Below are positions 2,458 to 31,528 of a stretch of 33,520 nucleotides of DNA, piece by piece (position 1 is the stretch's first letter; each line of letters opens with the position of its first letter). The position numbers were made by a program, and so were the translations under genes. The notes beneath the pieces were generated by a model. It was not told where the DNA came from. It ran no database searches and worked only from the letters and a program-made list of their open reading frames with translations. This DNA comes from a virus (taxonomy: Duplodnaviria > Caudoviricetes): the IMG/VR virus record IMGVR_UViG_3300048574_000224, positions 1 to 33,520 of that record. The stretch is one strand, 5' to 3'.

Positions 2458-3360
2458 TTACGCGGCTCCGCCCTTGCTGGACACATGCCCGAAACCAGGG
2501 TTGATATGTGCCGCCTTGCGCCTTTCTGTTACCTGGAAGTAGGTATTCAAGGTGTCCTTTTTGTCTACCGTATAACCGTACTTTAAGCCCCTCCGGATCT
2601 GCATGATGACCGACTCAATGTCCTCGTCGATCAGATGATAGTACTTCTGGTTGATGTACCTGTTCCAGATCAGACGCAGTTGGGGTACGGTATTCTTGGT
2701 GTTGCTCTGTTCCATCGCTTTCAGGTTCGAAGCAAGGATCGCCTGCCAGGTTGACATATTGTCTTTGTGAAATAAAATCGCGGCGGCGTCGGTGTCGAAC
2801 AACTCACCGTTATGCCTGTAAATGTGGTTGAATTTGTTGCTGGCGTTGATCAATGCATCCGGTGAAGGAGCAACATTTTCGGCAAGGTTGTCATTGTACA
2901 GCCCAGCGTTATTCTTCAGCGGATGGGTTGCGCTGGCGTAATACACGCCGTCGGCGCCGGTTGTGGTAAAAACGCCATCCCATTGTTCGGCGATATGCTT
3001 TTCCCGGAGCGTCTGCATTGTCCTGGGGAGCTCCTTCTGCTGACCTTCATCGACAACGGCGTAGAGGTCATCCTCCTCTGCTTCCATGGAGAACCAGTAC
3101 CCATTTGCATAAGTCTCGTTCACCACGGTCGTCTGGTATGCCTGTTCCAGTTTGCCGTACTGGATGGGGGCCTCCTCTTCCTTCAGGTGCGCCGGCTTAA
3201 GGTTGCCTATGCTATCATAGGTTTCCTTTGCCTTCTTGGAATCGGTTATCGAGGAGCACGATCTCCACTGTTCCTTTTTGGCCGGTTTGAGGTTCGCCCG
3301 GAAAATTTTTGCCTGCCCTGCTGCAAGCATACGGGATATATCGGATCGTCTCATTGCCAT
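2458..3360 (-). CDS. Major capsid protein (Mu gpT-like / HK97 fold)
   Basis: 300 aa after scaffold and decoration genes; TYANGY.FSMEAEEDDLY and TGADG...SATHPL motifs typical of this capsid family. Confidence 0.8.
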   Translation of the reverse strand: MAMRRSDISRMLAAGQAKIFRANLKPAKKEQWRSCSSITDSKKAKETYDSIGNLKPAHLKEEEAPIQYGKLEQAYQTTVVNETYANGYWFSMEAEEDDLYAVVDEGQQKELPRTMQTLREKHIAEQWDGVFTTTGADGVYYASATHPLKNNAGLYNDNLAENVAPSPDALINASNKFNHIYRHNGELFDTDAAAILFHKDNMSTWQAILASNLKAMEQSNTKNTVPQLRLIWNRYINQKYYHLIDEDIESVIMQIRRGLKYGYTVDKKDTLNTYFQVTERRKAAHINPGFGHVSSKGGAA

Positions 3361-5377: not shown

Positions 5378-5839
5378 TTATCGTGAAATTATTATATCTT
5401 CCGGGCCAGGTTCCGCATCGTCCCCGTTTTCCTCGATGACAATCCGGTCAACTGCCCCAGTGTAATCAATCCCCTGCCGGCGGAGCGCTTCATAAATATT
5501 CCGGATTTTGAGCTCCTTTTCGAACCACTCCTCGACGGTGACGGGCTCCGCGGTTACTGTTCCACAGTACCAGCAGTACGCACTCCCCGGAGGGATATGG
5601 TGCCAACTCGCCCACCGTTCGCAATGGCTGCATACAGGAAGCTCAAACGGATCCCCGGACATGGCATAGGCATTCTTTATAAATGCCAGCAGTTCCGCTT
5701 TTTGCATCAAGAGGTGTTGCTTAACGTTCTTTGCCGTCGGGGATATTTCCTGGAGTTTATCCAGCATGAGCATGTGGGTGTGATCCGGCTTCTCCCAATT
5801 GTGTTTTACCCTGTGCTTCCGTGGTATTTTATACAGCAA
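5378..5839 (-). CDS. Hypothetical protein with CxxC...CxxC zinc ribbon
   Basis: CSHC and CWYC; overlaps the portal stop. Confidence 0.7.
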   Translation of the reverse strand: MLYKIPRKHRVKHNWEKPDHTHMLMLDKLQEISPTAKNVKQHLLMQKAELLAFIKNAYAMSGDPFELPVCSHCERWASWHHIPPGSAYCWYCGTVTAEPVTVEEWFEKELKIRNIYEALRRQGIDYTGAVDRIVIEENGDDAEPGPEDIIISR

Positions 5840-13382: not shown

Positions 13383-14255
13383 CTACAACATGCTCATTTG
13401 TTCGTATCCGTCTATTTCTCCGTGTGACGGCTTCCTTGTTGCTTCCTTCTTCTCCTTTGGCTTCCCCTTTAGGGCGGCTCCACATCCTGACGTGTTCAGG
13501 AGCATTTTTTTCAGGGCGTCCATGGTTCCGAATCCTCCATCTTCCAAGATCCTCGCAAGTTCATCGATCACCGGGAACCCTTCCGGCGTCTCCATGTTCA
13601 AAATATTCGGCACCTCTTCCATAACAAAGGTCTTCGGCTGGATCTCGGTGATCATCCTGGCATATTCAAAAACCAGGCTATTACGAGGATCCATAACGTT
13701 TCTTTTTGAATTCAAAATGCTGTATCCTTGGCATGGGGGACCACCGCATACGCAATCTACATCCCCTTGGCGGAGTCCCAATTTGTCAAGCATGTCCTGC
13801 CCTTTTAGCTTCCGGATATCCCCGAACCAGAAGTTCCTTACCGGTGGTATACTTGGATTGTGCCGGATCCACCCGCTGCCACTCAGCTTACTCCCTATCG
13901 CTGTGTTATATATGCCATATTTTGTATCCCATTTTTTTAAGTTACCTTTTCCGGACGGATCCTTTTTCTCTTCACGATCCTCCCTTTTAATTTGATTTTC
14001 CAATTGCTTATTCAATCGCTCTTTATCTCCGGACCCAATGTAATGGATGTTTACCGGATAACTTCCCAGATTGACCAGATATGTAATTGTTGCATTCGGT
14101 TCCCATTCGTTTGCCGCTACCACCTCAAATCCGGCCTTCATGAACCCTAAGCTGAATCCACCGCACCCGGCAAAAAAATCCATGGCAATAGGCCATTTTC
14201 GTTTTATCTGGGTATATTCAGGTATGTACAATCCGCGGTGATGTACGTAATTCAC
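13383..14255 (-). CDS. DNA cytosine-5 methyltransferase-like protein, N-terminal half only
   Basis: Motif I DFFAGCGG, motif IV GGPPCQG, motif VI EEV; motif VIII, TRD, IX and X not seen. Confidence 0.8.
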   Translation of the reverse strand: MNYVHHRGLYIPEYTQIKRKWPIAMDFFAGCGGFSLGFMKAGFEVVAANEWEPNATITYLVNLGSYPVNIHYIGSGDKERLNKQLENQIKREDREEKKDPSGKGNLKKWDTKYGIYNTAIGSKLSGSGWIRHNPSIPPVRNFWFGDIRKLKGQDMLDKLGLRQGDVDCVCGGPPCQGYSILNSKRNVMDPRNSLVFEYARMITEIQPKTFVMEEVPNILNMETPEGFPVIDELARILEDGGFGTMDALKKMLLNTSGCGAALKGKPKEKKEATRKPSHGEIDGYEQMSML

Positions 14256-20011: not shown

Positions 20012-22633
20012 CTATGCTACATTTACCTTGCTTCCCTCCGGCCCCTTCGTCACTTCGATCCTCCGCGGGAAGGCGTCCTTCAGTTCCTCCAGATGGGTAA
20101 TGATGATCACCTTTGCGAAATCCTGGCGGACAGCGTCGATCACGCCAAGGATCTTCTGCCGGCCGGCGGCGTCCAGGGAACCGAAGCCCTCGTCGATTAC
20201 GAGGAGCTTGATCTCAGCCCCGGCCCGGTGGGCCAGGAACTTCGATATGGCCACACGAAGGGAAATGTCGATGATGAACCGCTCAGCTCCGGAGAAGGTC
20301 TGGTACGGCCCGGGCAGGCCTTCGTCCAGGATTGTAATACGGAGAACGTCCTGCATGGTGCCGGTGGTCTTGCCCTCCACCTGGGTGTCCAGCCGAAGCT
20401 GCATCCGGCCGCCGGTGATCCGCGTCAGCATATCGTTGGAAAGACGCTCGATCTCCGGTACCGCATTTTCGATGATCAGCGCCGGGACTCCGGATTTCTT
20501 CCCACAGGCCTGTTCCAAAATCTCACAAGTTGACATTTGGGAACGGAGATCCTTCTCTTCCAGTTCGATTTCCCCAAGAACCTTCCGTGCTTTATCCGCA
20601 TCCTGGATCGTCTGTTCGCATTTCCCGATCTCGTTGCGATAGGCAGCTTCATTCTCCTTTTGCCATCTAATTATGGTCTTCAGTGATTCCAGGGATTCGT
20701 TCAGCTTGTCCAGTTCTGCGATCTGGCTCTTGGTGGTAACGAGCTGAGAATCAAGATCGCACACGGCATTCCATAAGGAATCGTATGTGGCCCGATTTTT
20801 GGAAAGCGATTCCTGCAGTTCCGGTAGAAGCGCCTTTGCGCCATCCAGTTCCTGTTTCAAGGCTGATATTTTTTGTGCTTCAGCGAGGCGGATTCTGAGT
20901 GTAACAAGCTCCTCTTGGGATTCCGTCAAAGAAACGATTTCGTTCACAATCCCGTCAGCTCTCTCCCGATCCGGTGACGGTGCCTGGATCTCCTTTAACC
21001 TTTCCCGGATCTCGGCATCCCTTTTCTCCAATTCAGCCTTTTTGGATTCAGCCACGTCGAGCTTCCCCTTCAGGCAGGATGTCTTTTTGATTTCCTCCAG
21101 GAGATTCCTGCAGGCAGTATGAAGCCCGGGATTGTAGCTTAAAGCGTCCCGTTCGGATACTGCCTTATCATAGGCCGCCTTATGGGGATTAAACTTGCTG
21201 TTTTCCTCCCTGAGCCGTTCATTCAGTGTCACAAGTTCGTCCGCTGCCGCCCTGGCACTGGCCAGAAGAGCACATGCATCCCGGACGGATCCGCTGCATG
21301 GGACAGAAGAAAGCGTTGCAACCAGGGGGCGCTTCGCTTCTATGGAAGATTCAAGAGAAGATATCTCGGAGCGGTGATTGCTATCCCATGCATTTAGTAC
21401 ACGAGATAAAATTTCAATATCGCTGATATACTTCATGTGAAGCGCCGATTTACGTTCATGCTCCTGGAGCTCAAGCTGGAATCGCTTCTCCTGCTCGCAT
21501 GCTTCCAGGATTTCATCCTTCTTCTTCAGGACGAGTTCAAGGTCCATGAGGTCGGCGCCGATGTTGAAGGATTCCGTCTTCAGCTTCTTCGCTGCATCGG
21601 CCGCCGTGTTGATTTTCTCCCGGAGATCCTTCAACTGCTGTTCGAGCAGCGGAAGCGTTGTGAGAGATTTTTCAATAGAGGAGATGTCGTTTGTGAGGTT
21701 CTTCTCCTCCTCAATAGCTTCAAGGACCTTTTCACTATTCCCCAGGATGCTGTTCAGCCGGGCGATCTTCCTCTCCAACTGGGAGATTTCTTCGTACACT
21801 TTCGTACGGTCCTGTAATATTGAATCCTTTTTCCGCATAATATCATCAGCCTGGTTCCGGAGGATCCCCCGGGTGGCCAGCTTGGCATTGACAGAATCCA
21901 TTTCAGCCTGCAGATCTCTCAATTCCTGTTCGCAGTCTGCAAGCTTGTCCCGGGTAGTTTGAAGAAGGTCCTTCGCCGAATTGGCGTTGTCCACTTGGGA
22001 CTGCAGCGGGGCCTTTCGGATTGCCAGATGGGCCAGCTTCTCGTTGAGCTGCTTCAGCTCCTTCTTCACTCGCTCCTGGAGAACATCCCATATGTCAAGT
22101 CCAAGGATCCTGGCCAGGGCGTCCTTTCGTTCGGCGTCGGTCATATCGTTGGTGAAACTGTCGGCCTTCCCCTGAAGGACCAGTGACGAGGATATAAAGG
22201 TGCGATAGTCCATCCGGAGGGTCTTCTCGATAATCTCCTGCGTCTCGGCGATGCCCTTGCCGGATAGTGGCTTCCATGTAGCTTCCATTGCTGTGTCAGG
22301 TCCCTTGTCGTCTCTCGTTAAAACAAAGAATTCCAGCATAGTCTTGTCCTTTGCAGCCGATCGATGGCGGATCACACGGTAAAGGTTTCCATTCAGCCGG
22401 AATTGGAGTTCGACGCGACATTCCTGTTCTCCGCGCTTTACATAATCGTTGAGGTTTCTTTTACCGCCCTTGCTGCCTTCCCCGAAGAGACACCAGGTAA
22501 TCGCGTCGGTGGCCAGGCTACTCTTGCCGGCGCCGTTCTCACCGGTGGCTACGGCAATATCAATGCCGTCAAGGTTGACGGTTTCATCTTTATATGAAGT
22601 GAAATTCTGCAAATGCAATTGAACAGGATTCAT
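20012..22633 (-). CDS. sbcC: SbcC/Rad50-like SMC ATPase
   Basis: Walker A GENGAGKS, Q-loop, long coiled coil, signature FSGAE, Walker B VIDEGFGSLD, ITH. Confidence 0.92.
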   Translation of the reverse strand: MNPVQLHLQNFTSYKDETVNLDGIDIAVATGENGAGKSSLATDAITWCLFGEGSKGGKRNLNDYVKRGEQECRVELQFRLNGNLYRVIRHRSAAKDKTMLEFFVLTRDDKGPDTAMEATWKPLSGKGIAETQEIIEKTLRMDYRTFISSSLVLQGKADSFTNDMTDAERKDALARILGLDIWDVLQERVKKELKQLNEKLAHLAIRKAPLQSQVDNANSAKDLLQTTRDKLADCEQELRDLQAEMDSVNAKLATRGILRNQADDIMRKKDSILQDRTKVYEEISQLERKIARLNSILGNSEKVLEAIEEEKNLTNDISSIEKSLTTLPLLEQQLKDLREKINTAADAAKKLKTESFNIGADLMDLELVLKKKDEILEACEQEKRFQLELQEHERKSALHMKYISDIEILSRVLNAWDSNHRSEISSLESSIEAKRPLVATLSSVPCSGSVRDACALLASARAAADELVTLNERLREENSKFNPHKAAYDKAVSERDALSYNPGLHTACRNLLEEIKKTSCLKGKLDVAESKKAELEKRDAEIRERLKEIQAPSPDRERADGIVNEIVSLTESQEELVTLRIRLAEAQKISALKQELDGAKALLPELQESLSKNRATYDSLWNAVCDLDSQLVTTKSQIAELDKLNESLESLKTIIRWQKENEAAYRNEIGKCEQTIQDADKARKVLGEIELEEKDLRSQMSTCEILEQACGKKSGVPALIIENAVPEIERLSNDMLTRITGGRMQLRLDTQVEGKTTGTMQDVLRITILDEGLPGPYQTFSGAERFIIDISLRVAISKFLAHRAGAEIKLLVIDEGFGSLDAAGRQKILGVIDAVRQDFAKVIIITHLEELKDAFPRRIEVTKGPEGSKVNVA

Positions 22634-23826
22634 CCCTCGAGCACCTCCTTGATCATTTCTGCGGCCACAATCATGAGCCCGTCTTTGAAGCCTCTGCTGA
22701 CTTCCTTTTTATCAAGCCATTTCGATAGGGCGTCCAAGGGGCCGGTTTCCTCGGTAACCGACGCCTCCCGGCTGCGCTCCGACCGGGTGATCTCCGGGAA
22801 TATCCCGGCGATGTATTCCGGAGCGGAAGCTTTCAACAGATCCATGATCTTCGCATGATCCACCAGGGGGGCCAGATCTTCGGTAACCTTATATTTCACC
22901 CGGGCAATTGCTTCCGTGACCGGTATCGTCTTGCAAAACCAATACAGATCCTCCGCGACATCCTCTTCACTGCTTATGGATGCTGATATCGTATGGAATC
23001 TCCTCGCCGGCAGATCGATCCACCCGTAGGTTCCGGCGTCCAGATCGTGTATGTAGCAACCGCGGGGATCGTCCTCCTCGCCAAAGTCAACCCTCTCCAG
23101 TGCGCCGGCGTAACCGATGAAAGGCTTCTCGGAAAGGACCTGAGCTTTATGGATGTGGCCAAACAGGACCGCATCCCATTCCATCGCCTGCAGCTCCGCC
23201 AGAGGGATAACCGGTTCCGTCCCGCCGTAAAGGAGCTGCCCGGAGGAGGCGACGGATCCGGAGATCGTCCAGTGTCCGATGAGGATATTCCGCCGGCCCG
23301 GCCCGTACTCATGGCACTGGACCATGAGGCTGCGGCAGATATCGACCAGCTTTTGAGAAACAAGGGACGCAAGTTCCGCCGGATCCGCTGCCTGATCAAT
23401 AATGCCAGCCGGTTTGATGGAGGGAAGAACCGCGATATTGGCGTCGTCAATTCGGAATACGTCCGGGACGTTGGTGAACTGGACCAGCGAATCATCTCCG
23501 CAGGCAAGGTTAACAAGATCGACCGGCCCGGGACGCCCTGCTCCAACCAGGTCGTGGTTCCCGGGACACCCCACTACGCGGATGCCGTATGCTGCAAAAG
23601 AAGAAAGCAGTTCGGATACGGCAATAATCTGTTCCGGCGACGGGCGGCTGTTTTTAAAGAAGTCCCCCGGGAACACGGCGGCGTCGACATCGTTATCCAC
23701 TGCGGCCTGCAGGAGAAAGCTTGCTGTCCGTTTCCAATCGGTCAGGCGGGAATGCTCCCCAGAAGGGAGCACTTTGCCGTAATTGTCATAAAAGCAGTGT
23801 AGGTCAGGAGCGTGTAATATTTTCAT
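22630..23826 (-). CDS. sbcD: SbcD/Mre11-like nuclease
   Basis: DLH, GDFF, GNHD, GH, FGHIH, DFGE; coupled to sbcC. Confidence 0.92.
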   Translation of the reverse strand: MKILHAPDLHCFYDNYGKVLPSGEHSRLTDWKRTASFLLQAAVDNDVDAAVFPGDFFKNSRPSPEQIIAVSELLSSFAAYGIRVVGCPGNHDLVGAGRPGPVDLVNLACGDDSLVQFTNVPDVFRIDDANIAVLPSIKPAGIIDQAADPAELASLVSQKLVDICRSLMVQCHEYGPGRRNILIGHWTISGSVASSGQLLYGGTEPVIPLAELQAMEWDAVLFGHIHKAQVLSEKPFIGYAGALERVDFGEEDDPRGCYIHDLDAGTYGWIDLPARRFHTISASISSEEDVAEDLYWFCKTIPVTEAIARVKYKVTEDLAPLVDHAKIMDLLKASAPEYIAGIFPEITRSERSREASVTEETGPLDALSKWLDKKEVSRGFKDGLMIVAAEMIKEVLEG

Positions 23827-24905: not shown

Positions 24906-25145
24906 CTATCCCTTAAGAGCTTTCATGCAAGCCGGACAGATGTTCTTCCCCTTGTAGTCGATGGTGTTTCCCGCTTCACCGCAGAAGATGCAGGCCGGTT
25001 CGTACTTCTTCAGAATAATATTGGCGCCATCGACATAGATCTCCAGAGAATCCTTTTCCTCAATATCCATGGTTCTCCTGAGCTCGATCGGGAGCACTAC
25101 CCTTCCAAGCTCGTCCACTTTTCTCACGATTCCGGTTGATTTCAT
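24906..25145 (-). CDS. abrB: AbrB-family transition-state regulator
   Basis: MKSTGIVRKVDELGRVVLPIELRR plus C-terminal CIFC...ICPAC; AGGAGGT RBS. Confidence 0.93.
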   Translation of the reverse strand: MKSTGIVRKVDELGRVVLPIELRRTMDIEEKDSLEIYVDGANIILKKYEPACIFCGEAGNTIDYKGKNICPACMKALKG

Positions 25146-25504
25146 ATAAAAACCTCCTAAAAAAATTTTAGCCTTTCGGCTGGGCCCGGATCAGCTCCGG
25201 GCGGGCTCACTACTCTTCGCTTTCATCGGTTCCATCGGCGTCTTCGACGTCATCATCCTCGTCATGCACGAAAAACTTTCGATCTTTAATAGAATTTAGC
25301 GGCCGGCCGGAAGCCGCTTTTGTCTTGTGTGTATTATCCCGGGATTTCAATCCATCGTGTATCCTGGCGGTAAACCAGGCCATTCCGCTTTATCATCAAC
25401 GGGCCTCTCCATGCACATCTCCCCTGCAGCCTCACCGGCCTGTAATTGGCTACAGCTTCCTCATGCACTTCATTGGGGCCCTTCATCTGGGTTTTTGTAG
25501 GGAA

Positions 25505-25617
25505 TCAGGGCGGGCAAGGATTTACACCATGCATGTGCTTTCTTCGTCCCATTAGATTAAGGCAATTGGTAACACTAGAATTGCCACAAGCGTCTACCTA
25601 TTCCGCCACCGCCCTGA
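25505..25617 (-). ncRNA. tRNA-like RNA with non-canonical anticodon region
   Basis: Acceptor-like stem TCAGGGCGG/CCGCCCTGA, Leu/Ser-type D arm TGGCGGAATAGGTAGACGC, T-like arm GCATGG-TGTAAAT-CCTTGC. Confidence 0.7.
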
Positions 25618-25625
25618 AAGTAAGA

Positions 25626-25859
25626 TCAAGTGTTCTCCGTGATATAGTCCACCAGCTCGCCTACCGTGCTGAACGTGTCAGCAAAAGCACTGGAGATTTC
25701 GATTGCGAACTCCTCCTCGGCCGCCATGACGATCTCGAGTATGTCGTCATCAGATGCGCCAAGATCGCCCTCCAGTTTACTGTCGGGGCCAATCGCTACT
25801 TCCAGTTCGTCGATGTCCAACTGCTCCACAATGATTTTTTTGACCTTATCGAATACCAT
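25626..25859 (-). CDS. Acyl carrier protein-like protein lacking the canonical DSL serine
   Basis: MVFDKVKKIIVEQL...DLGASDDDILEIVMAAEEEFAIEI...TVGELVDYI; AGGAGGT RBS. Confidence 0.88.
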   Translation of the reverse strand: MVFDKVKKIIVEQLDIDELEVAIGPDSKLEGDLGASDDDILEIVMAAEEEFAIEISSAFADTFSTVGELVDYITENT

Positions 25860-25899
25860 ACGGTACCTCCTGTATAATAATTTTATTGCGCCCATCTTA

Positions 25900-26289
25900 T
25901 CAGCACGCCCTGTCGTCATCCGAAAGCTCCGCTTCAGCGACGGATAGCTTGCAGATTGCCCTGAGATTTTCCTGGATATTGACGAGCTTCCGAAGTTCAA
26001 TCCCCTTCGCACCGATCGTCTTTATGCTTTTCTTCAAGGCCCGGTCCATCTGCGGATACTCCTCGCTGCACCGCTTGCGTCTTGCCAGCTCCGCCTGCCG
26101 CTTTGCGTCATTGCTGTACATCGGTTTCCCGTAATCATCGGTAACATTGCTGATTTCATCGATCTGCTCAAACTCCCATTCTCTGAGATTCTGTCTGATC
26201 TCTTCCTGTTCAATTGTGCTGAGCAGCATTTCATGTTCCACGCCAGCGATCATGCCGGGCAACCTGTTCAGTTCTTTCCTTATATCCAT
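25900..26289 (-). CDS. Coiled-coil hypothetical phage protein
   Basis: GGAGGT RBS; GKPMYSND..RQAE. Confidence 0.7.
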   Translation of the reverse strand: MDIRKELNRLPGMIAGVEHEMLLSTIEQEEIRQNLREWEFEQIDEISNVTDDYGKPMYSNDAKRQAELARRKRCSEEYPQMDRALKKSIKTIGAKGIELRKLVNIQENLRAICKLSVAEAELSDDDRAC

Positions 26290-26336
26290 AAAACCACTAC
26301 CTCCGTGAAAATTTTTAGAAAATGAAAACGGCAGCG

Positions 26337-26720
26337 CTATACTACCGTCATCATTGCGGGTTCCGCCATGCGGGTCCGCAGTTTTGCCACCATATTGAAA
26401 TCTCCGCGCTCCCGGGCAGAATCGATTGCTGCGTTTAATGACACAACAACCGATTTTTGGTAATCCGGGATGGAGCCGTCGTATGCCAGGACATTCACCG
26501 TGTCAAAAGTCTTGACACTGCCGTATTCGTAGGGTCTTCTTTCATAAACGACGCCCGGGTAGAAGATAGTGCGCTGCAGGGGGTAATCAATACAGGCGAG
26601 TATTTTGATCCGGACCGAATCGGACAGCTTCGGATGATCTTCCACGAACCGGCCGATGTATCCGCCGTCAAAATCGCTTTTCGCGACAACCAGTTGATCT
26701 ACTGAAAAACTGTGCTTCAT
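26337..26720 (-). CDS. KapB-like protein
   Basis: 127 aa with ordered motifs G.YIG, IKILA, YP.Q, ERR...YG, YDG.IPDY..S matching KapB as recalled. Confidence 0.65.
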   Translation of the reverse strand: MKHSFSVDQLVVAKSDFDGGYIGRFVEDHPKLSDSVRIKILACIDYPLQRTIFYPGVVYERRPYEYGSVKTFDTVNVLAYDGSIPDYQKSVVVSLNAAIDSARERGDFNMVAKLRTRMAEPAMMTVV

Positions 26721-26820: not shown

Positions 26821-27007
26821 ATCTGGCGTTTTTAAGCTGTTCGTCTACCTCCCCCCCTACCTTCTTCCAGGCTCCGACGAACGCCATATCAACATCCTCG
26901 CCCTCGTCCAAAACAACCGTTGCCTGTGCCTCCGCCGTGATATTCTAGTAGTTTCCAAGGTTCTTCACCCTGCGGACCGAAACACTGATTTCCTTTACCT
27001 TTGACAC
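26819..27007 (-). pseudogene. 62-codon phage gene with an in-frame TAG at codon 21
   Basis: AGGAG RBS; MSKVKEISVSVRRVKNLGNY*NITAEA...; TAG at 26945-26947. Confidence 0.7.
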
Positions 27008-28198: not shown

Positions 28199-28328
28199 CT
28201 ACCATTTTGGTAACTTTGAGACCATTATATGCTACCTTTTTGGTAGTGTCAATAGGTAAATTACCATTTTGGTAGAATAATTTTACATGAAAGCTTTGTG
28301 TGCTAAAATGAAATTACCATATAGGCAG
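28199..28328. promoter_or_regulatory. Lysis/lysogeny switch: four operators and divergent promoters
   Basis: YTACC-N5-GGYAR at 28199, 28232, 28261, 28314; minus-strand TTGACA-17-TATAAT (28252-28224); plus-strand TTTACA-16-TAAAAT (28282-28309). Confidence 0.85.
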
Positions 28329-28339
28329 AAGGAAAGATT

Positions 28340-28660
28340 ATGTTCAACGGAGATAGGTTAAAGCTATTAAGAGAAGAAAAGAAAATGACACAAGAAGAAT
28401 TGGCAAAGCTGTTCAATGTGACAGACGCGACCATTAATAGATATGAAAAAAATCAGCGCCAACCTGATACCGATGCGCTTAATCGTTTTGCTGATTTTTT
28501 TGATGTAACAACAGATTACTTATTAGGAAGAACAGACAAGCGCAAGTTCAATGATGACGATCTGATATTTGGAATAGATGAAGAAATGATAAAAATCAAG
28601 CTGACAGATGACATTAAAAAAAGGCTGAAGGAAAAAGTTCTTAAAGCTTTTGAAGAATAA
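28340..28660 (+). CDS. cI: CI-like XRE repressor without a peptidase domain
   Basis: RLKLLREEKKMTQEELA...RYE...R.P....L...ADFFDVTTDYLLGR; only 106 aa. Confidence 0.9.
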   Translation: MFNGDRLKLLREEKKMTQEELAKLFNVTDATINRYEKNQRQPDTDALNRFADFFDVTTDYLLGRTDKRKFNDDDLIFGIDEEMIKIKLTDDIKKRLKEKVLKAFEE

Positions 28661-29645: not shown

Positions 29646-31214
29646 TTGTCAAGGGTATATCAAGACAAATACGCAGGAATACTGAGGGTCGCAATTTACC
29701 TTCGCAAATCCAGAGCCGATGAAGAGCTGGAGCGCGAGCTCGGGAAAGGGGAAACTCTTGCCCGTCATAGAAAAGCTCTCTTTAGAGTTGTTAAGGACCA
29801 CAACTTTTGTATGGTCAGGGTCTACGAAGAAGTAGAGTCCGGCGACAGCATCATCAATCGGCCGGCCATGTTGGAACTCTTGCGGGATATTGCAGCTGGA
29901 CTTTATGACGCCGTGCTTGTCATGGACATCCACCGGCTTGGCCGCGGCGACCAGCAGGACCAGGGGCTCATTATAAAAACCTTTAAGGAATCCGGAACAA
30001 AGATAGTTACTCTGGATAGAGTGTTTGATTTAAATGATGAATTCGATGAAGATTATGTAGAAAATGAATCCTACATGGGACGCAAGGAATACAAATACAT
30101 CAAGCGCCGCCTCCAGGGCGGAAGGGTAAGATCGGTCGAAGAAGGCAATTATATTGGAACAAGGCCCCCTTATGGCTATTCTATCCGCAAGGAAAAACAC
30201 ATCCGGACGCTCGACCCTCACCCTGACCAGGCCGAAATTGTAAAAATGATATTTGACCTGTATGTGAACAAGGGAATTGGTATTCAGGAAATCGCCAATA
30301 CGCTGAATGCGACTGGCATTCCATCATATACCGGTATCCGGTGGGACAGGACCGTCGTTAGCTCGATCATCAAAAACGTGACTTACATCGGAAAAGTACC
30401 ATGGAATAGAAAAAAGACGACGGTGCCAAGAACAGAGACAACCAAACGGTCGGTTAGAACGCGCGATCGCAGCGAATGGATCGTGGCCAACGGGAAGCAC
30501 CCTCCGCTGATCGATGAAGCGACATTCCAGAGGGCCCAGGAAATAATCCGAAGCAAGTATCATGTCCCATACCAGGTTGTGAACGGCGTTAAAAATCCGC
30601 TTGCCGGAATAGTAGTCTGCGGAAAATGCGGTTACATGATGCATCGCCGGCCGTACAAATGCGGTGGGCCCCATCTCCTATGTGTGAACTGTGACAATAA
30701 AAGCAGCCGGCTGGATTATGTCGAGCAGAAACTGCTTGATATGCTAACTCTTCAGTTGAAAGACCTGCTTGCGGATACAAAGACCAAAAAGGCACCAAAT
30801 GAAAGTGCTAACCTAATTTCACTAAGAAAGCATGAAAGCCACCTGGAAAAGGAAATCAGTGAGTTGAACGGGCAAAAGAACAAGCTTCATGATTTACTTG
30901 AACGCGGAGTATATTCCACAGAGACATTTATTGAGCGGTCAAAAGTAATTGCGGACCGGATTGAAGAGATACAAAACTATATCAAGGCCGCAAGGCTCGA
31001 GATCGCAAAAGAAGAAAGGCTTCTGAACACACAAAAAACGGTTATTCCGCATATTCAGAATGTGTTAAACGGATATTGGAAAACCGATGACCCCATCGAA
31101 AAAAATATGCTTCTCAAAAGCGTCATTGAAAAAGTCGAATACGTCAAAACGAAGGACCAGCGCGATGATGATTTTTCGTTGAAAGTGTTCCGGAAGGTGC
31201 TATTTACGCCGTAA
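29646..31214 (+). CDS. Large serine recombinase (SpoIVCA-like integrase)
   Basis: YLRKS catalytic motif, D..RLGR, PPYGY, HPPLID, zinc ribbon CGKCG...CVNC, coiled coil. Confidence 0.95.
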   Translation: MSRVYQDKYAGILRVAIYLRKSRADEELERELGKGETLARHRKALFRVVKDHNFCMVRVYEEVESGDSIINRPAMLELLRDIAAGLYDAVLVMDIHRLGRGDQQDQGLIIKTFKESGTKIVTLDRVFDLNDEFDEDYVENESYMGRKEYKYIKRRLQGGRVRSVEEGNYIGTRPPYGYSIRKEKHIRTLDPHPDQAEIVKMIFDLYVNKGIGIQEIANTLNATGIPSYTGIRWDRTVVSSIIKNVTYIGKVPWNRKKTTVPRTETTKRSVRTRDRSEWIVANGKHPPLIDEATFQRAQEIIRSKYHVPYQVVNGVKNPLAGIVVCGKCGYMMHRRPYKCGGPHLLCVNCDNKSSRLDYVEQKLLDMLTLQLKDLLADTKTKKAPNESANLISLRKHESHLEKEISELNGQKNKLHDLLERGVYSTETFIERSKVIADRIEEIQNYIKAARLEIAKEERLLNTQKTVIPHIQNVLNGYWKTDDPIEKNMLLKSVIEKVEYVKTKDQRDDDFSLKVFRKVLFTP

Positions 31215-31237: not shown

Positions 31238-31252
31238 GGTGTAAACGAAATC
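31238..31252. other. Approximate att junction between prophage and sigK 3' half
   Basis: SigK similarity begins abruptly at AAC GAA ATC (31244); in-frame TAG at 31229-31231. Confidence 0.7.
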
Positions 31253-31528
31253 ACGCTGATCGACGTCATAGGGAACGAAGCCGAATCCGTCATAGACGAA
31301 GTCGAATTGAAGATGCAGGTAAAACGGCTCTATAATAAGATGAAGGCTGTGCTTAAAAAGCGCGAAAAGACAGTTCTTGAACTGCGATACGGGCTTTTGA
31401 ACGGCACGAGCAAGACACAGCGCGAGATCGCCGGAATGCTTGGAATATCCCGCTCCTACGTATCCCGGATCGAAAAGAAGGCGATCAAAAAACTGAGCAA
31501 GGAGCTTAAACCCGACAGCTGCCGCTAA
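31244..31528 (+). CDS. sigK: 3' half of interrupted sporulation sigma factor SigK (spoIIIC-like)
   Basis: NEITLIDVIG...REK.VLELRYGL....KTQREIA.MLGISRSYVSRIEKKA; regions 1-2 absent. Confidence 0.93.
   Translation, partial: NEITLIDVIGNEAESVIDEVELKMQVKRLYNKMKAVLKKREKTVLELRYGLLNGTSKTQREIAGMLGISRSYVSRIEKKAIKKLSKELKPDSCR

Follow-up and report, generated by a model that had tools for sequence, protein, structure and literature searches.

An early operon in a clostridial prophage carries disabled likenesses of two host hubs: an acyl carrier protein (ACP) look-alike, here ACP*, in which Asp replaces the phosphopantetheine-bearing Ser, and a tRNA-shaped RNA without an anticodon arm. On balance, we lean toward reading this region as a mosaic of separately exchanged early genes in which ACP* and the RNA are likely decoys, each acting on a separate host protein. 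The reading sets out from what was observed, namely, the genes and their order, the Asp, the covarying stems of the RNA, and the independent occurrence of AbrB, a KapB-like gene, and the RNA. The clostridial set of ACP* proteins, the measured 7/6 geometry of the RNA, and a one-way co-occurrence of the two are new here.

The window (the whole 33,520-nt stretch of viral DNA analyzed) is a 33.5-kb virus contig estimated to be 45% complete. Read from its right end, it carries host genes, then the 3′ half of sigK and a large serine recombinase; a repressor/cro-like switch and the minus-strand early operon come next, followed by SbcD/SbcC and then packaging and head genes. The features discussed are as follows.

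24906..25145, minus strand: AbrB/SpoVT-family regulator (PF04014, TIGR01439, phrog_4681) with a C-terminal CxxC...CxxC
25401..25481, minus strand: second non-coding hairpin, behind the tRNA-shaped RNA, with 19 predicted pairs, 2 of them compensatory (two sequences)
25507..25615, minus strand: tRNA-shaped RNA, with a Leu-type D arm and family covariation
25626..25859, minus strand: ACP*, matched by the PP-binding profile, with Asp at the phosphopantetheine site and the acidic face of helix II kept
25900..26289, minus strand: orf129, a 129-aa protein encoded between the KapB-like and ACP-like genes
26337..26720, minus strand: KapB-like protein of a prophage family, with a predicted KapB fold (SH3-like barrel plus helices) and a profile match below the cutoff
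28224..28252, minus strand: sigma-70-type promoter of perfect consensus (12/12 match, 17-nt spacer), facing the cro-like gene
28340-28660, plus strand: repressor-like HTH gene, divergent from that promoter
29646..31214, plus strand: large serine recombinase (PF00239, PF07508, PF13408)
31241..31528, plus strand: 3′ half of the host sigK, with 94% identity to intact SigK

Profile, structure, and RNA pattern matches thus place within 1.8 kb of the early operon all four host look-alikes (KapB-like, ACP-like, tRNA-like, and AbrB) that an earlier note on this DNA had described there; orf129 and the second conserved hairpin were missing from that note. Its view that the element splits sigK also holds, since the recombinase adjoins a truncated sigK and the junction lies within the gene, at about 31238-31244, at G-N-E-I-T codons, in an alignment with two intact genes. 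The intact 239-aa gene to which the fragment is 94% identical is in genome G204 and passes both SigK models. Only one end of this sigK-intervening element is present, and the 5′ half of sigK is outside the record. A serine recombinase beside a split sigK is also what the known sigK-intervening prophages have, namely, skin, C. perfringens phiS63, and an Alicyclobacillus phage (PMC5025042, PMC3442830, and PMC13141910). The insertion, like a phage-borne abrB, is already known and adds little. In L407, the closest relative of the window, an inverted repeat adjoining the recombinase (positions 470-560) has a center that resembles the sigK junction by eye, which suggests the same target site as that of the window prophage.

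Judged from its consensus, the promoter likely drives the early operon. One early gene of 59 codons (26822-26998, minus strand) has an in-frame TAG; because its L407 homologue, 62% identical, is intact, this is a pseudogene or a sequencing error. Intact SbcD/SbcC genes (20012-23826, minus strand) lie behind the neighboring orf356 and are common to all orf356 relatives fetched, which mostly lack ACP*; ACP has been reported to bind MukB, another SMC protein, in the excerpt available. Below, “host order” means the order of G204 (149 genomes), which was reached by sampling 301 genomes of a clostridial class.

ACP* matches the Pfam PP-binding profile with an E value of 6.8e-9, and its AF2 model has the four-helix fold (pLDDT 88.7; TM ~0.9 to phage ACPs). 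The Ser expected at the start of helix II is absent: the motif reads GASDDD where GADSLD is usual, placing Asp in the attachment column, and a Ser two residues upstream might still be modified. The ATG start is preceded by a ribosome-binding site, CAGGAGG, and was preferred to a GTG-start version of 128 aa, which we dropped. Helix II is the partner interface of ACPs (excerpts of PMC6158461); the window protein retains D39, E42, M45, E48-E50, and F51 there, and part of this face is lost in the P0160 copy. Bacterial AcpP (PF00550, TIGR00517) and phage ACP homologues (phrog_5934, BFVD) have the same fold, size, acidity, and helix II residues. ACP* differs from AcpP in its Asp, in a TIGR00517 score of 67.6 under a cutoff of 70.45, and in the absence of fatty-acid genes nearby, and it is about 50-56% identical to ordinary ACPs, with no other sequence exceeding 56% identity to the window copy. 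A Ser-less ACP that works by binding alone has a precedent in the Plasmodium mitochondrial ACP, which likewise has the fold without a prosthetic group (excerpts of PMC8547962). That protein is eukaryotic, binds the partner Isd11, and has Ser changed to Phe, whereas ACP* is phage-borne and has Asp.

Searches with the window ACP found Ser at this column in 152 of 189 domains. The same was true of 165 of 168 aligned matches from profile and metagenome searches (the three exceptions being the profile's own members, and the 80 metagenome loci all being ordinary ACPs), all 30 top host copies, and the four other phage ACPs fetched. Asp occupies it in the window, L407, L201, G471, P0025, and P0153, at 35-55% identity, and among 12 lower-scoring host-order matches fetched, one was an ACP*. 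The change at the functional Ser, which the earlier note had pointed out in the window, therefore recurs in the early regions of four phage settings: the window, L407, L201, and a prophage of genome G471. Trees group the window copy with P0025 and P0160 (support 96/91 in a tree of 55 of 175 rows; 94/83 without the motif columns) and do not establish that all ACP* copies are one clade. The L407 protein is a long branch that the trees leave unplaced, with three changes needed, so that a repeated origin of ACP* is possible.

The tRNA-shaped RNA of the window has a 7-bp acceptor stem (which extends to 9), a 6-bp T stem with one U-U pair, an unconserved middle with no anticodon arm, and no encoded CCA. 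The Leu-type D-arm pattern matched once in the window and not at all in 100 shuffles. ARAGORN and Rfam (gathering and E-value modes) returned nothing relevant for this RNA, and shuffled versions fold just as well as the single sequence (z 0.07 to 0.61). Its family was reached with one strict pattern (a D arm, then 40-70 nt, then a T arm), which matches an estimated ~500 viral stretches, at least 119 among the matches listed. ARAGORN called none of 120 family sequences, 119 of which had enough flank; 112 distinct sequences made up the covariation set. Across these, acceptor pairs 2-7 are paired in 102-111 members, against shuffle means of 45-58 (the shuffles ignore relatedness); an eighth and a ninth pair are modestly above chance, and later pairs are at chance. 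T-stem pairs 3-6 are paired in 105-109 members and the next pair in 1. Because the D arm, the T loop, and two T-stem pairs are fixed by the search pattern, their constancy is not independent evidence of conservation. The middle is barely structured (median fold z -0.31) and no more alike than chance (identity 0.47 versus 0.46 shuffled), and CCA is encoded in 7 of 112.

Acceptor, D arm, and T arm are thus those of a tRNA, with a 7/6 branch in place of the 7/5 branch and 5-bp T stem, and with no anticodon stem and 7-nt loop; the anticodon arm that the earlier note had called altered is missing from the family. The nearest resemblance is to class II tRNA-Leu, with its Leu-type D arm, U8, A15 with U before the T stem, and 7-bp acceptor (as excerpted); tRNA-Sec has the same 13-bp branch length, whereas allo-tRNAs are 8/4 and 9/3 (excerpts of PMC5389517). 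From all three the RNA differs in its T loop, UG(C/U)AAAU (set by the search pattern), in having no anticodon or variable arm, in rarely encoding CCA, and in a hypervariable middle of 41-70 nt. The branch shapes named in excerpts of the same paper are 7/5, 8/4, 9/3, 8/5, and 9/4, which do not include 7/6, and it states that EF-Tu recognizes a 12-bp branch. In bacterial genomes, the D-arm motif alone matched canonical tRNA-Leu in 110 of 120 cases, and the other 10 include several family members. A guide-RNA role of the middle against the phage itself was considered and rejected, with only one 13-nt same-sense match found.

The L407 RNA sits at the same place and has a middle of ~155 nt, which the strict pattern would miss. 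Similarity between the two relatives continues past the second hairpin to ~25280 (L407 counterpart, 5552-5790). That hairpin (z -1.8 in the window, -2.9 in L407) has no Rfam match and, among 467 sequences, occurs only in these two. In L201, a cloverleaf with the loop GCACAAG and the T loop UCCGACU (2889-2964, plus strand) lies directly before ACP*; it is not called by ARAGORN and is preceded by ~500 nt that are apparently non-coding.

The KapB-like protein falls below the cutoffs of both KapB families, with 24.2 bits against 26.3 for Pfam PF08810 (E 3.8e-5) and 28.9 against 140 for NF052680. It nonetheless resembles Bacillus KapB in predicted fold (E 6e-4 to PDB 1y71; TM 0.80 between its ESM Atlas model and a KapB cluster) and has in common with it the motifs GxYIG, KILA, YP.Q, ER.P, and Y.G.IP.Y. 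The phage protein was found only in prophages of an order in which Pfam KapB matched 0 of 149 genomes (a B. subtilis control was positive). No host gene was thus found for it to mimic, and the earlier suggestion of a host-component mimic gives way to a gene that belongs to prophages. A two-sequence profile found seven further loci in 6 of the 149 genomes, all among phage early genes (two weak matches inside longer proteins, at L420 and L421, are left out of this count). Pfam also missed those six genomes, so that its negative result on 49 AbrB phage records is weak, and the absence of KapB-like genes from AbrB loci given below rests on a nine-sequence profile over ±4-kb loci. The L407 copy is 46-47% identical to that of the window. 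Single-protein locus searches with the KapB-like protein or ACP* found nothing; relatives of both were reached only through alignments and the neighboring orf356. The adjacent orf129 had no significant Pfam, PHROG, or NCBIfam match and has a 43% identical counterpart at the same place in L407. The C-terminal helices of the KapB-like protein (26340-26420, minus strand) resemble an IDEAL motif by eye, and the second ESM Atlas match is an IDEAL-domain cluster, over the N-terminal part only. The link of KapB to KinB is a Bacillus result (excerpts of PMC6011975), and the phage protein probably has a role other than KinB signaling.

The AbrB protein scores above the cutoffs of both family models (PF04014, 48.3 bits; TIGR01439, 32.6 bits), and a relative is encoded by 152 viral stretches, as a common phage early gene. 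An AbrB-type gene on a phage has been listed among phage sporulation genes (Table 1 of PMC10294663, as excerpted); the main text of that paper has no mention of kapB or acyl carrier. The window gene encodes a regulator of the usual phage-borne kind, which may influence sporulation on its own. Two tight hairpins (25165-25215, minus strand; z -3.1) directly precede its ribosome-binding site.

The earlier note had joined the four elements into a coordinated module acting on sporulation or the stringent response. No other locus examined holds all four, and AbrB, the KapB-like gene, and the RNA each occur independently elsewhere, an outcome that the note itself had named as counting against the module. 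L407 (orf356, 62% identical) has, in order, the KapB-like gene, orf129, ACP*, the RNA, and the second hairpin; AbrB was not found in this record, which is 65% complete. Its early region runs collinear with that of the window throughout, so plain descent may account for that order. L201 combines its different cloverleaf with ACP*, a small ORF, and AbrB, with no KapB-like gene within 5 kb. In the prophage region of G471, ACP* is in the early operon and 55 kb separate it from a tRNA-shaped RNA; neither AbrB nor a KapB-like gene occurs in 100 kb, and ACP* and the RNA may be in two adjoining elements. None of the four is present in five other orf356 relatives. The seven other KapB-like loci hold no ACP* and no RNA, and two have an adjacent AbrB. 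Among 80 AbrB loci, none has an ACP or a KapB-like gene and 1 has the RNA; ACP was absent from all 49 whole records of AbrB loci. Conversely, no AbrB, ACP, or KapB-like gene was found within 3 kb at 80 RNA loci, and 49 whole records with the RNA (of 119 loci) held no AbrB and no ACP. Own-record controls for these absence searches were positive. What linkage survives is, in this small sample, one-way: a tRNA-shaped RNA is present in every one of the four ACP* phage settings (adjacent in three, with another scaffold in L201), and the RNA mostly occurs without ACP.

Under the mosaic reading that we prefer, the early promoter would transcribe these genes upon induction or infection. ACP* would adopt the AcpP fold without being loadable at the usual attachment site, and through the acidic helix II that it keeps it would rival AcpP for some ACP-binding protein. 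Nucleases that process tRNAs would release the RNA, which would display an elbow and an acceptor helix like those of a tRNA. With a branch of 13 bp and no anticodon, the RNA would stay out of decoding and so sequester a tRNA-binding protein, most likely a defense enzyme directed at translation. The retention of ACP and RNA in disabled form across phages fits decoys, and to this extent the decoy idea of the earlier note stands; the four-gene module is not supported. That L407 keeps three of the four in the same order, and that an RNA of this shape is found in four of four ACP* settings, amounts to closer linkage than pure mosaicism would predict. If the reading is right, the retention of a Ser-to-Asp ACP by several phages implies that some ACP-binding protein is important in infection, and disabled phage copies of host hubs point to further host targets.

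A less likely alternative, which we entertain tentatively, is that ACP* and the RNA work as a pair to neutralize one host system needing both, for example, an ACP-assisted tRNA-modifying toxin; some tRNA-acetylating toxins use ACP. The four-of-four co-occurrence is what such a pair predicts, as is the adjacency of the RNA in the window and L407 and of a different cloverleaf in L201. G471, moreover, alone among the 149 host-order genomes matches the strict RNA pattern, and no other had an ACP* among the ACP matches fetched. However, the window and L407 are relatives and so not independent, the L201 cloverleaf is a single sequence (z -1.2), the G471 features possibly belong to two elements, and the strict pattern behind the G471 count would miss an RNA like that of L407; the records and loci with the RNA and no ACP (49 of 49 and 80 of 80 within 3 kb) also weigh against it. 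A broader proposal, on which we place a similarly small share of belief, is that temperate phages of spore-forming clostridia use an unloadable Ser-to-Asp ACP and a 7/6 tRNA scaffold whose middle can be exchanged to disarm jointly a host defense that needs both ACP and tRNA; if so, the RNAs would amount to a natural display system built on a tRNA scaffold, across hundreds of phages.

Somewhat less probable again is that the RNA acts in cis, as it could, in the form of an RNase P/Z processing or stabilizing signal that punctuates the transcript, with ACP* redirecting lipid metabolism. At 74 of 80 loci the RNA runs in the same direction as the genes around it; its elbow and stems are conserved while its middle and 3′ end are not, and 56 of the 80 loci have no ARAGORN tRNA within 3 kb. 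Yet canonical tRNAs lie within 3 kb at 24 loci and within 1 kb at 22, the latter as expected of a free RNA product, and simple punctuation would presumably need no fixed 7/6 branch.

The coordinated four-part module, which would act in lytic growth to block sporulation or the stringent response and belong to a prophage that gates sigK, now seems improbable. In its favor are the presence of all four elements within 1.8 kb, the three syntenic in L407, the KapB-like and AbrB genes within 1 kb of each other in L431 and L434, another KapB-like prophage in sigK (L432), and abrB among phage sporulation genes (PMC10294663, as excerpted). Against it stand the absence of a second locus with all four, the 0 of 149 host-order genomes with Pfam KapB, and the finding of a sigK fragment at just one (L432) of the seven other KapB-like loci, within the DNA fetched. 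Firmicute Rel is not known to bind ACP, and an RNA without an encoded CCA or anticodon would be unlikely to activate Rel at the ribosome. Excerpts describe the coupling of ACP to SpoT in E. coli and Pseudomonas, and the title of a cited paper links it to bacteria that have two RelA/SpoT proteins. At L432, the prophage abuts the 5′ half of sigK (13991-14095), and its recombinase is 45% identical to that of the window.

That ACP* and the RNA are merely decaying captures of host acpP and tRNA-Leu, as the long branches of ACP*, the in-frame stop in one early-region gene, and the U-U mismatch in the window T stem might suggest, is very improbable given the same Ser-to-Asp change in four phages with frames and ribosome-binding sites intact and the near-complete compensatory pairing in 112 RNAs.

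A literature search covering mostly open-access papers found no phage Ser-less ACP and no such RNA; the supplements of PMC5389517 on irregular tRNA clusters may bear on the novelty of the RNA. The family of RNAs found with one strict pattern is a large one that neither ARAGORN nor Rfam detects. At L175 (4347-4470, plus strand), a tRNA-shaped family member lies ~120 bases behind a phage abrB. At four loci (L013, L033, L039, and L066), a second D-arm-bearing element lies within 2.4 kb of the first, and some of these have longer middles.
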